A stretch of 64,000 nucleotides of DNA from Candidatus Micrarchaeota archaeon. Lineage in GTDB: Archaea; Micrarchaeota; Micrarchaeia; Norongarragalinales; Norongarragalinaceae. The translations under genes and the position numbers were made by a program. The DNA lies in the NCBI GenBank assembly GCA_964580705.1, contig CAZOKY010000001.1, positions 1,224-65,223 of the forward strand, written 5' to 3'. Numbering within the stretch: position 1 is the first letter of the stretch; each line of letters begins with the position of its first letter. Below, in pieces: positions 3,415 through 52,230 of the stretch. Below the pieces are notes generated by a model, which had not been told where the DNA came from, ran no database searches, and was given only the letters and a program-made list of their open reading frames with translations.

Positions 3415-3474
3415 AAAAGTTTTTTGCGGTGCGCGCGTCGCGGAATAGCAACGAAATTCAAGGAAAAACTGTTT

Positions 3475-4185
3475 TCAAGCGCGGCGTGAAAAACGAGGTT
3501 CTAGTTTCTTGTGAATTCCAGCCGTGATAGCGTCCGAAATTTCTTCAGACATGAAACCGTGCTTTTCAGACGCCGCCGCGTCAGCCACGTGCAAGTAGCT
3601 ATTCAAAAGGTAACGCGTTTCCTCGCGTTCGCGGCGGTTTGCACCGCGCGCTTCATCGATAGCGCGTTCAATCGATAGCCGGTGCCGTTCGAATTCAGTC
3701 ACTTTTTTAAAAATCGCTGGAACTTCGACGTCAAACTGCTTTTCGTCCTCGCTCGGTTTTACTAAAACCGGTTGCCGGAGATAAAAATTAAGCAGCGTCG
3801 GCAACGCCGTGCTGCGCAACTTGGTTGCGCGTCCAGTTAAAGAATGCAGAAAACCAAAAGCGCGAACTAGAAAACCCGGTTTCAACAGCGTGTTGTGATA
3901 GGAAATTATTAGAGCATCAGGATTTTTAGCGCGCAAACCGTCGAAAAACGCTTGGTTTTCAGGGAAAAACCGAGCGTTTAGTCGAAACGGAAACTGCACA
4001 AACGGTTTTTTAGTAGTCAAGCCAAGCAGCCTGTGGTGAACGCTTAACTCTCTTGGAAAAGTTACGAAAGATACTTTGTGCCCCAGCGCTTCAAGCTTCT
4101 CGCTAACGCGTTTAGCAATCGGCGCCGCAGTCAGTTCGTTCGGGTCTTCGTCAACAACAAAGATGGCTTCATCCAAGCTATTCAC
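3475..4185 (-). CDS. hypothetical protein, translationally coupled to argS
   Basis: Track ORF 3475..4308 overlaps argS by 127 nt. An in-frame GTG at 4185 overlaps the argS TGA (GTGA), giving VNSLDEAIFVVDED... No family recognised. Confidence 0.45.
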   Translation of the reverse strand: MNSLDEAIFVVDEDPNELTAAPIAKRVSEKLEALGHKVSFVTFPRELSVHHRLLGLTTKKPFVQFPFRLNARFFPENQAFFDGLRAKNPDALIISYHNTLLKPGFLVRAFGFLHSLTGRATKLRSTALPTLLNFYLRQPVLVKPSEDEKQFDVEVPAIFKKVTEFERHRLSIERAIDEARGANRREREETRYLLNSYLHVADAAASEKHGFMSEEISDAITAGIHKKLEPRFSRRA

Positions 4186-8007: not shown

Positions 8008-8436
8008 ATGGCTCGAGGAGAATTCGCAGGACGCATACTCAAAAACCAGCGCAAGCAAGCGCGCTGGCTCAAGAAAACGTGGAAGCGCAAAGCCCTCGGA
8101 CTCAAGGAAAAATACGACCCGTTGGAAGGAGCGCCGCAAGCAAAAGGCATCGTACTGAAAAAAACGGGTAAAGAGCAAAAGCAGCCTCACTCGGGAATCG
8201 TCAAGTGCGTCACAGTGCAACTCGTCAAGAACGGCAAGAAAGTCAGCGCGCACTGCCCTCGCGACAAAGCAGTCGAGAAAATCGACGAACACGACGAAGT
8301 CTTAATCGAAGGCCTCGGCGGCTCGCAACGCGGGCAAATGGGTTCGATTCCCGGCGTGCGTTATAAAGTCATTCAAGTCAACGGGATATCGCTCGAAGAA
8401 TTGCGTTTGAACAGGAAGGAAAAACCGAAGCGTTGA
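8008..8436 (+). CDS. rps12: ribosomal protein S12
   Basis: Sequence typical of S12/S23e ([18 protein letters not shown] ... SIPGVRYKV). ATG 8008 (MARGEF); the track starts at GTG 7996. Confidence 0.9.
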
Positions 8437-16110: not shown

Positions 16111-17304
16111 TTACGGTTGAATCCACTCGATCTCGTAATACTCGTACTTGCTTCCAGGAAGCTCAATGCGCTTCACGCGATAATACGTGATGCTCGTCTC
16201 GCGGTCGCAAATCGCGAGCACGAGATCGAGCCCCAACTGCTTCGCCTGTTCGAGCCCGCGCGCCAGCTCCGCGCCGCCCAACTCTTCTTCCTCGCTGAGC
16301 GCCAGCATTACGAACTTCGGTTTCCCAGTCCGCGGGTTCTCAGGCACGCTGCCCGCGCTCTCGCGGTGGTAAAGCAGGAAGTCGAGTTCGCTCGCTTCGA
16401 CGCGCTTCGCGCCGGGAATCGCGAGAATAAACGTCTTGCGCACGCCGTGCGCCACGCGAATCGCCCGCGCCCACTCGCTGATGAGCATTCTTGCTTCGCG
16501 CGGGAAAACGTGGATGACGTGCTTCGAGTGCATCCACTCGCCTTCGCCGAGCCCCGGGCTCGCGCCCGGGAAGTACAAGCGAAAGTGAGTGCCGAACTTG
16601 AAACCCGTCTTGACGACGAACCCACGCAAGCGCCAGTCTTCGTAAACCGAGTAAAGCGCGGGAAAATCGCTGCGGCGCGCAGTCGCGTCCTTAACGAGTT
16701 TTTTCTCTTTAACGTTGAGCACGAAACAAGCGTGCTTCATGAGGAACAACGTCTCGTAAGCGTCGAGTTTGAGAAAGCGACCGTGCTTCTTCGCCTTGTA
16801 CGTCCCCCACTGGCCGAACCAATTCTTTTCATACAACGCCTGCCCCTCGACGTCGTCATCGATGATCGACATCAAATCGTCGCTGAAGAACAAGCCTTTA
16901 GCCTTCACTTCGGGAAAATCGCTCGGTTTGCACGGGTACTTCTGTAACGGGCTGCGTCCGTAATTCGCGTTCGCATCCGCTTCATCGATGGGGCGCGCGA
17001 TGAGCCCGCGGTCACGCCAATCCTTGAAGCAAAAATAACGGGCGAGGAATTTCGGGTTGTTTTGAAACTTCGCCGCGACGGCATTAAACGAAAGCTCCTT
17101 TTTTTTCGCGTGGCACTTCGCGTTCCGCACGTCGATTAAATAAAGCGCTTCCTCGGGCGTCAACTCGATTTGAGTTTTTTTCCCGTCAAATTCGGTGCCG
17201 AAAAACGAGCGGTCGAGAGCTTGAACGGTGATTAAGTCGGTTACGACGACGTGTTCATCGCCTTTCTTGCCGACGACGCTTAATTCAGTAGTCACGAACT
17301 TCAT
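16111..17304 (-). CDS. endA: tRNA-splicing endonuclease EndA, long single-chain multi-unit form
   Basis: Catalytic-domain signature (YEDWRLRGFVVKTGFKFGTHFRLY ... HSKHVIHV) and an N-terminal domain (EALYLID ... LARYFCFKDWRDRG). At 397 aa it is roughly twice the alpha4 size, as in three-unit epsilon2-type enzymes. Confidence 0.8.
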   Translation of the reverse strand: MKFVTTELSVVGKKGDEHVVVTDLITVQALDRSFFGTEFDGKKTQIELTPEEALYLIDVRNAKCHAKKKELSFNAVAAKFQNNPKFLARYFCFKDWRDRGLIARPIDEADANANYGRSPLQKYPCKPSDFPEVKAKGLFFSDDLMSIIDDDVEGQALYEKNWFGQWGTYKAKKHGRFLKLDAYETLFLMKHACFVLNVKEKKLVKDATARRSDFPALYSVYEDWRLRGFVVKTGFKFGTHFRLYFPGASPGLGEGEWMHSKHVIHVFPREARMLISEWARAIRVAHGVRKTFILAIPGAKRVEASELDFLLYHRESAGSVPENPRTGKPKFVMLALSEEEELGGAELARGLEQAKQLGLDLVLAICDRETSITYYRVKRIELPGSKYEYYEIEWIQP

Positions 17305-17488
17305 TCCTCCGAAAACCGCGCCGAACGAACGAAAAAAAACGTCGCGACTGCGGCCGATTGAGTGATTAACTGGTTTTTAGGCGCCGCAGTATTTAAAACC
17401 AGTCAACCCCTAAGAATAATGTGAGGGAAGCTTAAAGGAAAACGTCGAGGAAAACTTCGAACGTTTTCAAGGCTTTCACGGTGGGAAA

Positions 17489-21072: not shown

Positions 21073-22044
21073 TTGATAACAACCATGGCTCAAGACGCGA
21101 CGCAGGATTTGCTCAAGGAATTGCCGCACTTGATAGTGCTGATTGTGCTCGTTCTCGTGCTCCTCGTCGTCGTCACGAAATTCAACTGGGTTCACTGCTC
21201 GCAAATCCCCGGAAACTGGTGCGACATTTACTGCAACGTCGTAATGCGTTCGCACTCCCGCGTGGCGTTGCTTTACGGCGACGACGGAATCGGCGACCCA
21301 ACAACCCTCGAAAACATCATCCGACGCGTGCGGCCGTTCACGTACTTGGAACCCGTCCGCCTCAAAGACGCGAGCTACGGCATGCTGAAAGGATACGACT
21401 TGATCATACTCGAGCACGCGCGCAGCGTTTCCTACAAGGAATCGCGCGCACTACGCGAATACCTCAACACAGGCGGGATGATGATTTGGGTCGGAGATTC
21501 GGCGTCGCGCCACTACTACGACCAAATCGACGTCGCCGACGTCATCGCGCGCACGAGCGACGAAACGTTCAACGAAAGCGGTTTCAGCAAAGCCGAACTC
21601 CAGAAGGCGTTGGACCACGACATGACAATAGACGAAATCGACAACTTCACTCAAAAACTAGTTGAAAAAGGATTTTTCGGAGAGGACGCGCGCAAGCGGC
21701 CCAGCGGCTTCGGCCCGCTTCAAGACGTGTTGTTCGCGAAATACGTCGACGTCGTCAACGTCACGCCTGGAAAGAAAGTCACGATGAAGATAGTCAACCG
21801 CGATAACATGATGGGCCGCGGATTGTTCTACGAATTCGAAATAACGCCGATTCGCTTCGCCGACGTCAAGGAAAACGCGGCGTGGGTCGACAAAGTAACG
21901 CAGATTTCCTACGACGGGAAAGAGTATGCGGGGATTTATGAGACGCGTTACTCGGGGCGCGTGATTTACTCGTCAATTCCTTTGGAGGACTTGAATTCGA
22001 CGACGCTGTTGACGAACATTTTCGATTACCTGGTGCCGTGCTGA
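21073..22044 (+). CDS. membrane-anchored hypothetical protein, paralog A (possible class-I glutamine-amidotransferase-like / ThuA-type fold)
   Basis: N-terminal TM (LIVLIVLVLVLLVVV). Shares LKGYDLIILE ... NTGGMMIWVGD with paralog B. The fold assignment is only a guess. Confidence 0.5.
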   Translation: MITTMAQDATQDLLKELPHLIVLIVLVLVLLVVVTKFNWVHCSQIPGNWCDIYCNVVMRSHSRVALLYGDDGIGDPTTLENIIRRVRPFTYLEPVRLKDASYGMLKGYDLIILEHARSVSYKESRALREYLNTGGMMIWVGDSASRHYYDQIDVADVIARTSDETFNESGFSKAELQKALDHDMTIDEIDNFTQKLVEKGFFGEDARKRPSGFGPLQDVLFAKYVDVVNVTPGKKVTMKIVNRDNMMGRGLFYEFEITPIRFADVKENAAWVDKVTQISYDGKEYAGIYETRYSGRVIYSSIPLEDLNSTTLLTNIFDYLVPC

Positions 22045-22212
22045 AAAACGCGGTCGCAACGCGCGCGGCAAGGCGCGGAAGCCGTTCAAGCCCGTTCAAG
22101 CGAAAACTGAAGGAAAAACTCTCGCGACGCGCCGAGACTGCGCCGAGAATATGTTTATAAATACGGTTAGGGCAATAATGATAAGCACTTAATCTGGAAA
22201 GGGTGGTTCTCG

Positions 22213-25979: not shown

Positions 25980-26089
25980 TGGGCCCAAAGGGAATCGAAC
26001 CCTTGATCTTTTGCTGAACTAAGAACGAAAAACTCGTTCGAAGCCCTTTCGCACGTCAAGCGAACGTCTTACCACTCGACTATGGGCCC
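25980..26089 (-). tRNA. tRNA-Val (GAC) with a ~38-nt intron in the variable-loop region, a non-canonical position
   Basis: Hand-folded. Acceptor GGGCCCA/UGGGCCC, D-arm GUCG-AGUGGUAA, anticodon arm UUCGC-UUGACGU-GCGAA, T-arm AAGGG-UUCGAUU-CCCUU. 43 nt lie between position 43 and the T-stem instead of ~5. Confidence 0.7.
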
Positions 26090-26147
26090 ACGAAACTTAA
26101 GTCGTTTCCCGAAAAAACAAAGCGAGAAACCCATTTAAAACAACGAG

Positions 26148-26262
26148 TGGACCTGACGGGATTCGAACCCGTAACCTCATGCATGCCATGCATGCGATCT
26201 GTAACGCGCGGCGGACGATTGAAAAAATAATCGCTCGAGGCGTGCCGTTGATCTACAGGCCC
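26148..26262 (-). tRNA. tRNA-Ala (GGC) with a ~42-nt intron inside the D-loop, a non-canonical position
   Basis: Hand-folded. Acceptor GGGCCUG/CAGGUCC with a G3-U70 pair (Ala identity), anticodon arm CAUGC-AUGGCAU-GCAUG, T-arm ACGGG-UUCGAAU-CCCGU. The D-stem halves GAUC..GAUC are separated by 50 nt. Confidence 0.65.
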
Positions 26263-40512: not shown

Positions 40513-42693
40513 CTAATTCTTCCTGGAAGGCTTCCAGTTCTTCATCAAAGCGCTGTTGGCGGTTACCGCGACGCTCGAGAAAGCCATTGCCGCGCCCGCA
40601 ATCGCGGGGTTAAGCAGGGTTCCGGTGAACGGGTAGAGAACGCCGGCCGCAATCGGGATTCCGATCAAGTTGAACGCGAAAGCCCAAGCGAGGTTTTCCT
40701 TGATTTTCCTTAACACGAAGCTGCTCAACCTAATTGCAGTCACGGCGTCGCGCAAATCGCTTTTCACCAAGACGACGTCGCCCGCCTCGATTGCGACGTC
40801 GGTTCCCGAACCAATCGCTATTCCGACGTCCGCTTGAGCCAACGCGGGCGAATCGTTTATTCCGTCGCCGATCATCGCCACCCTAAAGCCTTTTTTCTTG
40901 AGTGCCTTCACGTGCTTTTCCTTGTCTTGAGGAAGCACGCGCGCGTAAACCAAGTCGATGCCCACTTTCTTCGCTATCGCTTTCGCGGTTTCCTCGTTAT
41001 CGCCCGTAATCATCGCGACCTTGAAACGCATTTTCTTGAATTCGCGAATGGCTTCAGCCGACGTTTCCTTGACCGCGTCCGCAATCGCTATCAAACCAAT
41101 CGCTTTCCCGTCGACTGCTACGAGCACGACCGTGTTCGCCTGCTTCTCCAACTCCAAAAGCGCGTGCGACAACGAAGCATGATTCACCTTGTTCGCTTTC
41201 AGCAACGCCGGGTTCCCCACTAAAACCGTCTTGCCTTTGACTTTCCCTGCAACGCCTTTGCCCGCGACCGATTTGAAGCCGATTGCCTTGCCGACGCCGA
41301 GCTTGCGGTTCCTGGACTCAAGGACCACCGCGTTGGCCAGCGGATGTTCCGAGTGTTTCTCCAACGCAGCGGCCCAAGCAAGCACTTCGTCTTCGCTGAA
41401 ACCGCTTGAAGGAACGATTTTGGTGACTACGGGCTTTCCGATTGTGATGGTGCCCGTCTTATCCAAAACGACGGCGTTCACCGACTCGATTTTCTGGAGC
41501 GCGGCCGAGTTCTTGAACAAAACGCCGTTTTCAGCGCCTAAACCCGAACCCACCATTATCGCGGTCGGCGTGGCGAGCCCAAGCGCGCACGGACAGGCGA
41601 TTATCAAAACCGAAACAAACGCGGTTAACGCGAAATCAAAGCCGCTTCCGGCAACCAGGAACCAGAAGGAAAACACGATTACGGCTATGACGAATACGGC
41701 AGGAACGAACACCGCCGAAACCTTGTCCGCCAACTCTTGAATCGGAGCCTTCGACGACTGCGCTTCCTCAACGAGCTTGATTATTTGCGATAGAAGCGTG
41801 TCTTTCCCGACTTTCGTCGCCTTGAATTTAAGCGAACCCGCTTGATTGATGGTGGCGCCGATTACTAGGTCGCCTTTCTTTTTCTTGACGGGAACGCTTT
41901 CGCCCGTGACCATGGACTCGTCGATGAAACTCTCTCCTTCCACGACTACGCCGTCAACCGGAACCTTGCCGCCGGGCTTCACCAACACGACGTCGCCGAC
42001 TACGACGTCGTCAACGGAAACCTCGATTTCCTTGTTTTTCCTGAACACTACCGCGGTCTTCGATTGCAAGCCCAGCAATTTCTTGATTGCCTGCGACGTC
42101 CTTCCTTTCGCGACCGACTCCAAGTACTTTCCAAGCGAAATGAAAGACAGGATTATCGCTCCCGCTTCGAAGTAAAGGTGCCCGTCGTAGCCGAGCACCA
42201 CCGCAACGGAGTAAAACATAGAGGAACCGACGCCGAGAGTCACGAGGGACTCCATCGTAGGCGAACCCGTTAAAACCGACTTGACTCCCTTGACGAAAAT
42301 CCGTTTGTTCACGAACAGAACGGGGATTACGAGCGCGAATTCAATCCACGCCGCGTTTTCCATGACAAACTCCGGCAACCGGAACAAGTTGAAATCCGCG
42401 AGCATGAACAAGAGCAGCGGAAAACTGAAGACCGCCGACAACAGGAAGCGCTTCCAGTACGCCGCCGACTCATCTTCCTCTTTTTTCGCGTTCGCTTCGC
42501 CCTCGAGCAGTTCCGCATCGAAACCCAAACTGATTATTTTGTCGCGCACCGAATCGAACGACGCATCGCCTTCGATTGAAAGCGTTTCCGAGTCTTCGAA
42601 GCTCGCGCTATGCACGCCTTTCGCTTTCTTCAAGGCGGCCTCGATTTTCCTGGAGTCGGCGCCTGGAGAAGCGCCGTATATCTTGAGCCTCAA
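40513..42693 (-). CDS. copA: copper-translocating P1B-type ATPase (CopA/CopB)
   Basis: CPC, DKTGTIT and GDGINDSPAL motifs. The start is inferred at TTG 42693, which overlaps the copZ TGA (TTGA); track ORF 40513..42861 overlaps copZ by 170 nt. The N-terminal HMA-like domain lacks CxxC (IYGASPGAD). Confidence 0.85.
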   Translation of the reverse strand: MRLKIYGASPGADSRKIEAALKKAKGVHSASFEDSETLSIEGDASFDSVRDKIISLGFDAELLEGEANAKKEEDESAAYWKRFLLSAVFSFPLLLFMLADFNLFRLPEFVMENAAWIEFALVIPVLFVNKRIFVKGVKSVLTGSPTMESLVTLGVGSSMFYSVAVVLGYDGHLYFEAGAIILSFISLGKYLESVAKGRTSQAIKKLLGLQSKTAVVFRKNKEIEVSVDDVVVGDVVLVKPGGKVPVDGVVVEGESFIDESMVTGESVPVKKKKGDLVIGATINQAGSLKFKATKVGKDTLLSQIIKLVEEAQSSKAPIQELADKVSAVFVPAVFVIAVIVFSFWFLVAGSGFDFALTAFVSVLIIACPCALGLATPTAIMVGSGLGAENGVLFKNSAALQKIESVNAVVLDKTGTITIGKPVVTKIVPSSGFSEDEVLAWAAALEKHSEHPLANAVVLESRNRKLGVGKAIGFKSVAGKGVAGKVKGKTVLVGNPALLKANKVNHASLSHALLELEKQANTVVLVAVDGKAIGLIAIADAVKETSAEAIREFKKMRFKVAMITGDNEETAKAIAKKVGIDLVYARVLPQDKEKHVKALKKKGFRVAMIGDGINDSPALAQADVGIAIGSGTDVAIEAGDVVLVKSDLRDAVTAIRLSSFVLRKIKENLAWAFAFNLIGIPIAAGVLYPFTGTLLNPAIAGAAMAFSSVAVTANSALMKNWKPSRKN

Positions 42694-42935
42694 AGTAACT
42701 CGTACCCCGCTTTGCCAACCGCTTGCTTGAGTTGCGGAACGCTCGCCTGCCTCGGGTCGTAATCCACGACGGCCGCGTTGTTCACGGCGTTGACTGAAGC
42801 CGAGGAAACCCCGTTCACTTTCTTCAACGCCTTCTCGACAGCCAAAGCGCACGAAGCGCAAGTCATTCCTTTAACCTTAAAAGACGCTTTCATTTCTTCA
42901 ACCACCTCTTTCTTCAACCGCCACTTTAAACCCAA
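42690..42935 (-). CDS. copZ: copper chaperone CopZ (HMA domain)
   Basis: GMTCASC metal-binding motif; 81 aa. Confidence 0.85.
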   Translation of the reverse strand: MGLKWRLKKEVVEEMKASFKVKGMTCASCALAVEKALKKVNGVSSASVNAVNNAAVVDYDPRQASVPQLKQAVGKAGYELL

Positions 42936-43026
42936 CTGAACCTAACCGCCGTTTGTTTTTCAATACGCTTTATTTTGATTTATTTTGACTTATTTTTCGT
43001 TACTCTTTCAGTCCGTTATTTTCGTT

Positions 43027-43272
43027 TTATTGCCGACTCACCTTATTGCCTCCAACGCGCTCCTTGCTTCCGACGCTTTCACTGCTTCTGGCGCGTTTAA
43101 TTTCCGGCGTTTTGCTCGTGTACTTGGAGTGCTTCGTCCTGCAACCCGCGCAACAATAATCCTTGCTCTCGTCAGCGAGCTCCATGCCGCACAACTTGCA
43201 TCCTTTCCCCGCTGCATCGCTGAAAACCTCTTTGTGGCAAATCGGGCAACTCAAACCGTTCACGCAAACCAC
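43027..43272 (-). CDS. YHS/TRASH-type small metal-binding protein
   Basis: CPIC ... CKLCGMEL (YHS-like CGM motif) ... CCAGC; 81 aa. Confidence 0.55.
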   Translation of the reverse strand: MVCVNGLSCPICHKEVFSDAAGKGCKLCGMELADESKDYCCAGCRTKHSKYTSKTPEIKRARSSESVGSKERVGGNKVSRQ

Positions 43273-45503: not shown

Positions 45504-45574
45504 TGCGGCCGCCGGGAATCGAACCCGGGTCTCAAGCTTGGAAAGCTCGAATCATACCATTGGACCACGGCCGC
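45504..45574 (-). tRNA. tRNA-Gly (UCC)
   Basis: Hand-folded: GCGGCCG acceptor, anticodon loop UUUCCAA, T-arm CCGGG-UUCGAUU-CCCGG. Confidence 0.8.
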
Positions 45575-45626: not shown

Positions 45627-45700
45627 TGGGGGAACCGAGATTCGAACTCGGGTCACGACCACCCCAAGGTCGTAGCATTGCCAGGCTAGCCCATTCCCCC
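45627..45700 (-). tRNA. tRNA-Pro (GGG)
   Basis: Hand-folded: GGGGGAA acceptor, anticodon arm CGACC-UUGGGGU-GGUCG, T-arm CCGAG-UUCGAAU-CUCGG. Confidence 0.8.
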
Positions 45701-48609: not shown

Positions 48610-48694
48610 TGCAGGGGGAGGGATTCGAACCCCCGAACCCCTAAGGGACAGGCACCTCAAGCCTGCACGTTTGACCAGGCTTCGCTACCCCTGC
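48610..48694 (-). tRNA. tRNA-Leu (GAG), class II with a long variable arm
   Basis: Hand-folded: GCAGGGG acceptor, 3-bp D-stem, anticodon arm CAGGC-UUGAGGU-GCCUG, variable arm UCCCUUAGGGGUUC, T-arm GGGGG-UUCGAAU-CCCUC. Confidence 0.8.
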
Positions 48695-51822: not shown

Positions 51823-51860
51823 GAATCACTCTGAACGCTGAATAACGAATAAAAGCAAGC

Positions 51861-52047
51861 GCCGGGACTGAGAAATCCGCGACTCTCGCGATCGTTCTGT
51901 TTTTCGATCTTTTTTCGAGAGAAGTTTCGAACTCAGGAGGCCCTTACGGGCCACAAGCTCCCCGGAAATCAAGACGGATACGCCTGTTTTTCAGGCAGTC
52001 CGAAAAAAGTTTTCCAGGCCTGCGCATTACCGCTCTGCCATCCCGGC
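51861..52047 (-). tRNA. putative tRNA-Ser (GGA) interrupted by up to three introns (anticodon loop, variable region, T-loop)
   Basis: Hand-folded. 5' GCCGGGA-UG-GCAG-AGCGGUA-AUGC-G-CAGGC-CUGGAA[14 nt]U-GCCUG. Variable-arm hairpin GGCCC-GUAA-GGGCC. T-stem halves CUGAG..CUCAG separated by ~50 nt. 3' acceptor UCCCGGC. A palindromic TATA-like gcgctttaaaaaagcg is centred ~29 nt upstream of the 5' end. Confidence 0.35.
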
Positions 52048-52068: not shown

Positions 52069-52084
52069 GCGCTTTAAAAAAGCG
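52069..52084 (-). promoter_or_regulatory. TATA-box-like element upstream of the putative tRNA-Ser
   Basis: gcgctttaaaaaagcg, centred ~29 nt from the proposed tRNA 5' end. Confidence 0.3.
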
Positions 52085-52230
52085 TTGGCGAAAAGCAGAA
52101 CGCAATGCTTCCTTTGAGCCGCGCGGCACGCACGAAGCGGGCTCGCGTTCCCTCGAAAGAGTAATTATTTCCCGCGCGGAGCTTTAAAAAGCCTTCGAAA
52201 GAGAGGAAAACCAAAAACTAAAGTAAACAA

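Follow-up and report, generated by a model that had tools for sequence, protein, structure and literature searches.

A probable epsilon2-type tRNA splicing endonuclease and the intron-disrupted tRNA genes encoded near it in a Micrarchaeota genome

The EndA gene and the architecture of its product

The window analysed here, a 64-kb stretch of a Micrarchaeota genome, contains a gene for a 397-aa, single-chain, epsilon-type tRNA splicing endonuclease (EndA) at 16111..17304 on the reverse strand (all EndA coordinates below refer to this strand), including its stop codon at 16111-16113. The gene was identified from its intact ORF and its homology to proteins in the PDB. The initial annotation had read the locus as a single-chain 397-aa tRNA splicing endonuclease of roughly twice the length of alpha4-type enzymes. 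The exact ORF and the nearly full-length EndA homology bear out the first part, and the protein is indeed about 2.2 times as long as the ~177 aa of alpha4 subunits. A GGAGG sequence is present at 17306-17310, upstream of the ATG. As its spacing is just 1 nt, the GTG at codon 4 (17293-17295) is an alternative start, which leaves the choice of start ambiguous over the first four codons. Metagenome contigs from ENA, JGI and Logan also yield a call of the identical 397-aa protein. No second EndA-like ORF was found within the 64-kb window. The adjoining gene encodes a class I LysRS; the two are not a conserved operon, being adjacent in just 4 of 61 loci.

The protein most closely resembles the epsilon2 EndA of Candidatus Micrarchaeum acidiphilum ARMAN-2, a tiny archaeon, described by Fujishima (2011, PMC3239211), Hirata (2012, PMC3488258) and Miyata (2025, PMC12397907), for which apo (PDB 4FZ2) and BHB RNA-bound (PDB 9W2K) structures are available (PMC3488258, PMC12397907). 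A phmmer search of the PDB matched 4fz2_A/9w2k over aa 17-397 (E = 3.6e-122), and in a global alignment, interrupted by only small indels, 192 of the 371 aligned positions (52%) are identical. Relative to the ARMAN-2 enzyme there are approximately five additional residues at the N-terminus, five in the first linker and two in betaC. An AlphaFold model of the chain (pLDDT 88.5, pTM 0.86) superposes over its full length on 4FZ2; Foldseek returned TM-scores of 0.91/0.93 to 4fz2_A and 0.90/0.93 to 9w2k_B, the next best matches being 5x89, 1rlv and 2gjw at 0.49-0.54. The host belongs to a Micrarchaeota lineage other than that of ARMAN-2, and the nearest named homologues carry the labels Micrarchaeota or Norongarragalinales.

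A Pfam scan of the whole protein identified the catalytic C-terminal domain PF01974 at aa 216-297 (E = 1.2e-27) and the N-terminal domain PF02778 at aa 147-204 (E = 1.2e-11), the two domains that the initial annotation had thought recognisable. Scanning each unit separately resolved a three-unit order: an N domain alone, an N domain with a catalytic C domain, and a structural C-like domain. The alphaN unit (aa 1-104; 16993..17304) was mapped from ARMAN-2 residues 2-97 using the boundaries in PMC3488258. It has the N-terminal-domain fold without a catalytic domain, gives a PF02778 match at aa 17-74 when scanned alone (E = 1.3e-4), and matches residues 12-97 of 4fz2 and, weakly, residues 7-95 of the M. 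jannaschii alpha4 enzyme. Linker 1 (aa 105-134; 16903..16992), placed by global alignment to the ARMAN-2 sequence, accommodates the five extra residues at a pLDDT still above 80. The catalytic alpha unit (aa 135-296; 16417..16902), assigned from Pfam and residue mapping, contains both PF02778 and PF01974 (E = 5.8e-20 for the latter when scanned alone). It is followed by linker 2 (aa 297-308; 16381..16416), mapped from ARMAN-2 residues 289-300. Finally, the betaC structural unit (aa 309-397; 16114..16380) is recognised from weak matches of C-domain, beta-subunit and Sen15 type: scanned alone it resembles PF01974 at 24.2 bits, under the cut-off, and it matches Sen15 weakly, the NCBIfam beta-subunit models at E = 0.01 and the P. 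aerophilum beta subunit (2zyz_A) at E = 0.017. The ARMAN-2 enzyme is likewise a single chain of ~390 aa in the order alphaN, linker, alpha, linker, betaC. Nearly end-to-end homology, full-length fold and the three-unit parse agree with the initial description of an epsilon2-like enzyme rather than a simple alpha'2 protein.

The other EndA classes each share part of this arrangement. In the alpha4 enzymes (M. jannaschii 1A79, and also ARMAN-4 and ARMAN-5) the whole subunit is homologous to the central alpha unit (E = 3.2e-17 over aa 157-299 for M. jannaschii), but these are tetramers of one unit of ~177 aa with strict specificity and no fused structural units; at 397 aa and three units, the protein described here departs from the single unit of about 170-180 aa that defines alpha4. 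The (alpha-beta)2 enzymes of Crenarchaeota and Nanoarchaeota (A. pernix 3P1Z/3AJV, P. aerophilum 2ZYZ, N. equitans 3IEY) have broad specificity for relaxed BHB motifs, a property predicted by homology for the present enzyme, and share a structural-subunit tryptophan that stacks on a bulged base. The A. pernix alpha subunit aligns with the catalytic unit (E = 2.7e-14). However, these enzymes consist of two separate polypeptides and have no alphaN unit, whereas in the 64-kb window a single ORF joins the alpha-like unit to the beta-like one. Their CSL bears no sequence relationship to the ASL, a resemblance that the literature regards as convergent. The alpha'2 enzymes of Euryarchaeota (A. fulgidus 1RLV/2GJW, T. 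acidophilum 2OHC) are single-chain homodimers with two active sites, the same triad and the same L10-pocket logic, features expected by homology in the present enzyme. They differ in having N and C domains in each of two repeats, the structural one first and the catalytic one last, in lacking the ASL, and in their strict specificity.

More than 100 homologues were found, nearly all of ~370-400 aa and all with source names of Micrarchaeota type; their public annotation already reads tRNA-intron lyase. At least 586 GTDB species genomes contain relatives. The best 80 of these at least 586 matches are full-length or ended by a contig edge, and nearly all are labelled Micrarchaeota. Epsilon2-type EndA appears to be the standard EndA throughout Micrarchaeota, and the gene is a further member of an already characterised family.

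Functional residues and the specificity loop

The roles of individual residues in ARMAN-2 EndA have been established by mutagenesis and an RNA co-crystal structure (PMC3488258, PMC12397907, PMC3239211), and its catalytic triad, ASL Tyr-Lys pair, pocket lysine, L10 aspartate and Arg/Trp clamp all have counterparts here. The catalytic residues Y244 (16573-16575), H259 (16528-16530) and K290 (16435-16437) align to ARMAN-2 Y236, H251 and K282 and form a single triad, confined to the central alpha unit. The same unit contains the pocket residue K232 (16609-16611), equivalent to ARMAN-2 K224, and R283 (16456-16458), alongside K236 and S260. The betaC unit contributes the L10-loop acid D367 (16204-16206), aligned to ARMAN-2 D357, and the bulge-stacking W394 (16123-16125). 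The aligned ARMAN-2 counterparts of R283 and W394 are R275 and W384, which clamp the first bulged base (PMC12397907).

The ASL of ARMAN-2 EndA confers cleavage of relaxed motifs (PMC3488258, PMC12397907). An equivalent loop, GTYKAKKHGRF (aa 167-177; 16774..16806), aligns without gaps to ARMAN-2 G158-L168 (GTYKVSEHGNL); both are 11 aa long, and the essential Tyr-Lys pair of ARMAN-2, Y160 and K161, is represented by Y169 and K170. Two lysines of a second ARMAN-2 loop, K241 and K244, are replaced by S249 and L252 and so are not conserved, and both are dispensable in ARMAN-2. Among 40 EndA homologues of 60-78% identity, Y169, K170, K232, K236, Y244, H259, S260, R283, K290, D367 and W394 are invariant in all 40. 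Within the ASL, G167 is also invariant and T168 nearly so.

Disrupted tRNA genes in the window

Six tRNA genes were recognised, and the initial annotation's claim that three have introns outside position 37/38 holds: tRNA-Val has one at 43/44, tRNA-Ala at 20/21 and tRNA-Ser at 59/60. Once the introns are removed, each gene folds into a canonical cloverleaf called by ARAGORN at default settings. The genes for tRNA-Gly (45504-45574), tRNA-Pro (45627-45700) and tRNA-Leu (48610-48694) are intronless, the extra length of the last being a normal class II variable arm.

tRNA-Val(GAC) lies at 25980..26089 on the reverse strand (Rfam tRNA, 60.6 bits), and Rfam reports an insert of ~39 nt following the anticodon stem. 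A splice-frame scan best places the intron as 38 nt at 26010-26047, probably at 43/44; frames from 42/43 to 45/46 all produce one and the same mature sequence, which ARAGORN calls Val. The predicted motif is of the relaxed HBh' form: H has 3 of 4 bp, pairing U38-G41 with intron AGCA across a G.A mismatch, h' has 5 bp and the outer helix is absent. Its formation would require three anticodon-stem pairs to melt. The RNAfold minimum free energy structure of the precursor independently pairs UGC with GCA beside the intron hairpin.

tRNA-Ala(GGC), with G3:U70 and A73, lies at 26148..26262 on the reverse strand and contains a 43-nt intron in the D loop (26201-26243, position 20/21). Only one splice frame yields a BHB, and this is a perfect, strict hBHBh' motif, with the D stem serving as a 4-bp h, and with 4 bp in H and 3 bp in h'; the spliced sequence is called as Ala(GGC). 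Rfam mislabels this locus (26145-26262) with a weak tmRNA match.

The class II tRNA-Ser(GGA), with G73, lies at 51860..52047 on the reverse strand. It is missed by both Rfam and default ARAGORN, and was recovered by lowering the ARAGORN threshold and parsing the sequence manually. It contains two 52-nt introns. One occupies 51960-52011 at the canonical 37/38 site (h 7, H 4), while the other occupies 51874-51925 at 59/60 in the T loop, where h is the 5-bp T stem and the 4-bp H pairs U54-G57 with intron CGGA. Splicing leaves an 84-nt tRNA that default ARAGORN calls Ser(GGA). The two introns are not paralogues, being no more similar to each other than shuffled controls are. In the loci compared, no conservation was detected in the non-coding stretch 5' of tRNA-Ser. 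Intron sites outside the canonical position are also found in the ARMAN-2 genome, which shares the 59/60 site in its pre-tRNA-Cys and pre-tRNA-Pro.

Sequences from relatives support the intron calls predicted in the window. The tRNA-Ala of locus L005 has an orthologous intron with the same site and motif and similar sequence (z = 13.7), together with an additional 37/38 intron. The L005 tRNA-Val orthologue reads GCGAA-AGATC, without the 43/44 insert, and has instead a D-loop intron (H 4, h 0, h' 13). A hand reading of the L006 tRNA-Val places an intron at 43/44 with H of 4/4 (UGCG/CGCA) and no outer helix. The Val intron site is thus 43/44 in the window, the D loop in L005 and both in L006. 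Ten metagenomic relatives share the tRNA-Ser exons and keep an intron at each of the two sites, with divergent intron sequences and lengths of 46-66 nt and 28-118 nt. Intron sites vary among genomes whose EndA proteins are 74-90% identical, although those of Ser(GGA) are fixed in at least 11 lineages even as sequence and length (28-118 nt) diverge. Across loci L001-L084, a rough ARAGORN count gives introns in 12 of 33 tRNA calls.

Several other models were considered and rejected. The ARAGORN model of tRNA-Val, with a 37/38 intron and a mismatched stem, was replaced by the BHB-supported 43/44 intron, and its 'Val(tac)' call for the second gene by the BHB-supported Ala(GGC) with a 20/21 intron and G3:U70. 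A 22-nt 'strict BHB' within the Val intron was rejected as a functional intron because its splicing would leave a 21-nt variable region. With introns allowed, ARAGORN also proposed a 'tRNA-Leu' (42538-43156, 525-nt intron), but this candidate falls inside a heavy-metal ATPase-like coding region. Low-threshold 'Arg' (~3463-3709, 147-nt intron) and 'Ala' (22026-22104) calls have poor stems and overlap ORFs, and exact T-arm motifs at 8341 (in a ribosomal protein S12-like gene) and 33482 are both in coding sequence. A custom scan for acceptor plus T-arm and a second one for D-loop/T-loop motifs, run over all intergenic gaps in the window, found no further convincing tRNA.

Proposed mechanism and substrate range

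We consider the product of this Micrarchaeota (DPANN) gene very probably orthologous to archaeal EndA (tRNA-intron lyase) of the epsilon2 type. Dimerisation and catalysis would then be expected to follow the ARMAN-2 enzyme. The alphaN and betaC units would pack together, mimicking a structural subunit, and two chains would dimerise through insertion of the acidic L10 loop of betaC (D367) into the basic pocket (K232) of the partner's alpha unit. The resulting dimer would hold its two active sites at a distance that fits both bulges of a bulge-helix-bulge motif. The triad of Y244, H259 and K290 would perform RNase-A-like cleavage at each site to leave a 2',3'-cyclic phosphate, with the first bulged base clamped by R283 and W394 from the partner chain. 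The lineage-specific ASL, through Y169 and K170, would grip the bulge backbone, allowing motifs that are missing one flanking helix (hBH, HBh') to be cut as well. The likely substrates in the window are the four introns: Val 43/44, Ala 20/21, and Ser 37/38 and 59/60. By homology, and from the one relaxed motif among these, the enzyme is predicted to cut strict and relaxed motifs alike.

A conventional alpha'2 EndA, in which two alpha-like repeats lie in tandem with the catalytic one C-terminal, specificity is strict and linkers explain the length, is highly improbable. In length (397 aa) the protein is nearer the alpha'2 enzymes (about 300-350 aa) than the alpha4 ones, PRK09300-type alpha'2 models give the best NCBIfam E-values, and the A. 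fulgidus and T. acidophilum enzymes are among the sequence and fold matches. Those alpha'2 models, however, score just 82-123 bits against cut-offs of 383-518, and the TM-score to alpha'2 structures is ~0.5, compared with 0.91 to the epsilon2 structure. The catalytic domain occupies the middle of the chain (aa 216-297) with a structural C-like domain after it, the reverse of the alpha'2 order, and the N-terminal unit has no C domain. The domain-level comparison reveals an N / N+C(catalytic) / C(structural) series, in which the outer two are half-units, and not an alpha'2 tandem repeat. The ASL insertion is also present, and grafting an ASL onto A. fulgidus EndA renders that enzyme broad in specificity. 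Even less credible is a decaying or non-functional copy, with splicing performed by another EndA encoded beyond the window. The visible genome amounts to 64 kb, and a second gene is possible elsewhere. Against this, the ORF is intact, the catalytic, dimerisation and RNA-binding residues are all invariant among the 40 homologues, independent metagenome contigs encode the identical protein, and the best 80 matches, among hundreds of related genomes, each represent a single EndA gene that is full-length or ended by a contig edge; the window itself lacks a paralogue.

A further alternative accepts the epsilon2 fold and holds that the enzyme is effectively strict, the odd introns folding as strict BHB motifs and the Val intron being processed in a different frame, in an alternative conformation or with the aid of a helper. 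The Ala 20/21, Ser 37/38 and Ser 59/60 motifs each have a 4-bp H and a native closing stem of 4-7 bp, while the Val motif is weak (H 3/4, h 0). Nevertheless, we regard this as unlikely, if somewhat less so than the preceding two. The ASL Tyr-Lys pair and loop length are invariant across the 40 homologues; in ARMAN-2, alanine at the Tyr-Lys positions impairs cleavage of strict and relaxed substrates, and deletion of the ASL is worst for the relaxed one. Both Ser introns have just 1 contiguous bp of h' and so are not textbook strict motifs. The L005 D-loop and hand-read L006 43/44 Val introns combine a 4-bp H with an absent outer helix. As a counter-point to the broad-specificity epsilon2 reading that we prefer, three of the four window introns have motifs in which H is 4 bp and a native tRNA stem provides the closure. 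These three might be substrates for a strict enzyme too, so the need for relaxed specificity within the window rests mainly on Val 43/44. From the 3/4-bp H with its G.A mismatch, the absent outer helix and the three melted anticodon-stem pairs of that intron, we tentatively suggest that EndA in this Micrarchaeota lineage may tolerate even greater departures from the canonical motif than are found in the substrates tested with the ARMAN-2 enzyme, though this seems somewhat doubtful.

That EndA co-evolved with disrupted tRNAs has already been put forward for the epsilon2 family (PMC3239211), and the locus adds little new biology, as the epsilon2 architecture, the specificity loop and the link to disrupted tRNAs were published for ARMAN-2 between 2011 and 2025. 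The invariance of the functional residues now extends across 40 homologues, where the 2025 paper (PMC12397907) compared five species. In this window, standard finders mislabel or miss the disrupted tRNAs, returning the Ala gene as tmRNA-like or Val and overlooking the two-intron Ser gene, so the tRNA inventories of such genomes will be undercounted. If EndA in this lineage is indeed more permissive, these genomes would provide a natural series relating enzyme permissiveness to the gain, loss and retention of introns.

Architecture of the EndA protein and its gene

On the minus strand, the tRNA splicing endonuclease gene (16111..17304) consists of one intact ORF, 397 codons long before its stop. 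The initial annotation described a protein roughly twice as long as an alpha4 subunit, with recognisable EndA domains, and the 397-aa product bears this out: Pfam identifies both the N-terminal domain (aa 147-204, E = 1.2e-11) and the catalytic C-terminal domain (aa 216-297, E = 1.2e-27). Sen15 (aa 331-378) and the Sen54 N-terminal family (aa 42-58) are matched as well, but weakly. NCBIfam equivalogs of the alpha'2 type match only in part, scoring 82-123 bits where the cut-offs are 383-518, and its beta-subunit models match weakly at aa 327-382.

The best PDB sequence match is the epsilon2 EndA of Candidatus Micrarchaeum acidiphilum ARMAN-2 (4fz2_A, apo; 9w2k, RNA-bound), which aligns across aa 17-397 with E = 3.6e-122; the remaining EndA structures match the central unit only, at E = 4e-22 or worse. 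Global alignment with the ARMAN-2 protein gives 52% identity (192/371 positions) with small indels. An AlphaFold2 model built from an input alignment of 40 sequences (mean pLDDT 88.5, pTM 0.86) superposes on the ARMAN-2 enzyme over its full length, with Foldseek TM scores of 0.91/0.93 for 4fz2_A, covering all 397 columns, and 0.90/0.93 for 9w2k_B. The Methanopyrus kandleri fusion construct scores 0.54, and the alpha'2 enzymes 1rlv and 2gjw about 0.5.

Moving the ARMAN-2 unit boundaries of Hirata et al. 2012 across via the alignment divides the protein into alphaN (aa 1-104), linker 1 (aa 105-134), alpha (aa 135-296), linker 2 (aa 297-308), and betaC (aa 309-397). Scanned alone, alphaN matches the N-terminal domain and nothing else, alpha matches both the N domain and the catalytic C domain, and betaC gives a sub-threshold C-domain/Sen15-like match. 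AlphaN is also similar to the N-terminal halves of the alpha4 subunit from M. jannaschii and the beta-like unit from M. kandleri; for betaC the similarity is to the beta subunit of P. aerophilum (E = 0.017). The arrangement is the epsilon architecture already published, in which the catalytic unit sits between the two parts of a split structural unit. A tandem repeat of the alpha'2 type, which would also yield a long single chain, is ruled out by the N / N+C / C-like unit order and by the TM of about 0.5. The epsilon2-like assignment of the initial annotation thus holds in domain-level comparison and predicted structure alike. The protein is an epsilon2 EndA orthologue with no feature departing from the family, sharing unit order and full-length fold with the ARMAN-2 enzyme, although only 52% of its residues.

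A GGAGG motif lies just 1 nt from the annotated ATG (window 17305-17310, minus strand), and its spacing to a GTG at codon 4 (17293-17295) is more usual than that to the ATG at 17302-17304; the true start may be this GTG, three codons downstream. A class I lysyl-tRNA synthetase gene (PF01921; 14450-16063, minus strand) follows 47 nt downstream on the same strand. As this adjacency occurs in only 4/61 related loci, the pair probably does not form a conserved operon. The 64-kb window, the visible part of the genome, contains no second EndA-like gene.

Functional residues and proposed mechanism

The residues whose roles were established in ARMAN-2 EndA (PMC3239211, PMC3488258, PMC12397907) all have counterparts here. 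These are the catalytic triad Y244/H259/K290 (ARMAN-2 Y236/H251/K282), the transition-state contact S260 (S252), the bulge contact K236 (K228), the clamp on the first bulged base R283/W394 (R275/W384), the dimerisation pocket lysine K232 (K224), the L10 aspartate D367 (D357), and the Y169/K170 pair (Y160/K161) of the ARMAN-2 specificity loop (ASL). None of them varies across 40 aligned homologues that share 60-78% identity with the query. The ASL equivalent (GTYKAKKHGRF, aa 167-177) matches the ARMAN-2 loop 158-168 in length, and grafting that ARMAN-2 loop into A. fulgidus EndA allows relaxed motifs to be cleaved. The second-loop lysines K241 and K244, dispensable in ARMAN-2, are by contrast not conserved.

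The analysis itself shows the epsilon fold and unit order, the conservation of every experimentally defined residue, and the presence of bulge-helix-bulge (BHB)-type substrates in the same genome. By homology, the enzyme is proposed to homodimerise via L10 (D367) and the pocket (K232), giving two symmetric active sites, each of which would cut after the second nucleotide of a 3-nt bulge. Y244, H259, and K290 likely catalyse cleavage to leave a 2',3'-cyclic phosphate, with the R283/W394 clamp presumably built across the dimer. Y169 and K170 of the ASL would anchor the bulge backbone, which would allow the enzyme to cut even motifs in which one outer helix is missing.

Disrupted tRNA genes in the window

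Of the window's six tRNA genes, three have an intron outside position 37/38, as originally claimed: Val at 43/44, Ala at 20/21, and Ser at 59/60. Those for Gly(UCC), Pro(GGG), and Leu(GAG), called by default ARAGORN, are intronless. Further candidates were examined and rejected, among them an ARAGORN 'tRNA-Leu' with a 525-nt intron, a false call inside a heavy-metal (CopA-like) P-type ATPase region (40513-43156, minus strand; HMA-domain ORF start MKASFKVKGMTCASCA...). BHB motifs, written hBHBh' when strict and hBH or HBh' when relaxed (H, central helix; h and h', outer helices), were scored with a simple script counting contiguous pairs.

tRNA-Val(GAC) (25980-26089, minus strand) is an Rfam tRNA with an insert of ~39 nt. 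Once 38 nt are removed, the remainder forms a perfect Val cloverleaf whose variable loop is AGAUC. The identical product results from five splice frames, and 43/44 (intron 26010-26047), the only one with BHB-like pairing, is the best-placed rather than the sole possible frame. Here U38-G41 pairs with intron AGCA to form H (3/4 bp, with a G.A mismatch), followed by a 3-nt bulge AA|A and a 5-bp h'. Since the outer helix is absent, the motif is a relaxed HBh'. RNAfold independently pairs UGC with GCA beside the intron hairpin. In related locus L005 (EndA 90% identical) the Val orthologue reads GCGAA-AGATC without an insert and has a D-loop intron instead, while that of L006 (EndA 74% identical) has both introns, its 43/44 motif having a perfect H (UGCG/CGCA, hand-read from sequence).

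tRNA-Ala(GGC) (26148-26262, minus strand), with G3:U70 and A73, contains a 43-nt D-loop intron (26201-26243) at 20/21. Its motif is a strict hBHBh' with a single working frame: the 4-bp D stem serves as h, AACG/CGUU forms H, and h' has 3 bp. An Rfam 'tmRNA' match at 26145-26262 (minus strand; 21.8 bits, E = 7.9e-5) is really this gene, and the Val(tac) label given to 26145-26262 by intron-permitting ARAGORN is wrong. The L005 gene has the same 20/21 intron (sequence similarity z = 13.7) plus a canonical 37/38 intron. The differing Val and Ala intron sites among the window and these close relatives (L005 1869-2535; L006 3408-3580) suggest recent intron loss or gain.

tRNA-Ser(GGA) (51860-52047, minus strand), a class II tRNA with G73, is called by neither Rfam nor default ARAGORN, only by ARAGORN at a lowered threshold. 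It has two 52-nt introns, at 37/38 (51960-52011; h 7, H CUGG/CCGG, h' 1) and in the T-loop at 59/60 (51874-51925). In the latter, h is the 5-bp T stem, H is UUCG/CGGA, and h' is 1 bp followed by a 2x2 internal loop and 6 bp. Ten related genes (L085-L090, L092-L095), recovered from metagenomes by scanning for a 5'-exon pattern, have exons that are nearly identical and an intron at each of these two positions; the introns are divergent in sequence and 46-66 nt and 28-118 nt long. The 59/60 H is 4/4 in 9/11 genes and 3/4 in the other two. Just upstream of the window gene is a promoter-like motif, TTTTAAAGC (52071-52079), with a second copy at 52181-52189. The ~100 nt of G+C-rich non-coding sequence after the second copy (window 52080-52190, minus strand; folding -30 kcal/mol) has no Rfam match and no similarity among the related loci compared; it could represent either a small RNA or an extended leader of the tRNA.

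A strict BHB is a target for strict EndA enzymes at any location, so non-canonical position alone does not require relaxed specificity. The in-window case rests on Val 43/44, on the two Ser introns each having a short h', and on similar motifs in relatives that likewise lack an outer helix, including the hand-read L006 43/44. Together with the conserved ASL, the relaxed Val motif is consistent with the broad-specificity enzyme amid disrupted tRNAs that was first suggested.

Distribution of the epsilon2 EndA family

A protein database contains 1427 relatives at E <= 1e-5. Nearly all of the best 120 are about 370-400 aa, and the source names given for them are all Micrarchaeota, Micrarchaeia, or Norongarragalinales. 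Identical proteins are encoded on ENA, JGI, and Logan metagenome contigs. GTDB contigs (one genome per species) yield at least 586 stretches coding for a relative. Those among the best 80 that are not full-length run into the end of a contig; nearly all 80 are labelled Micrarchaeota (including Fermentimicrarchaeum, Burarchaeum, and Anstonellaceae), a few only 'archaeon', and one belongs to a MAG labelled Kaiserbacteria. This near-exclusive labelling indicates that the window, of 53% G+C, comes from a Micrarchaeota genome, and that the gene appears to be the standard EndA of that lineage. The Kaiserbacteria-labelled case is a full-length epsilon2 EndA, 69% identical to the query, in a 'Candidatus Kaiserbacteria bacterium' MAG (L009; MFMA01000035.1), most likely a Micrarchaeota contig in the wrong bin.

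The epsilon2 type, its structure, the ASL, and the co-evolution argument were already published (PMC3239211, PMC3488258, PMC6379350, PMC12397907), and a 2025 paper found Y160 and K161 strictly conserved when comparing the ASL with four other Candidatus species (PMC12397907). Conservation of the ASL Tyr-Lys pair now extends from that comparison to 40 sequences. The epsilon2 EndA family occurs in at least 586 species genomes, and the interpretation originally given to this gene is supported.
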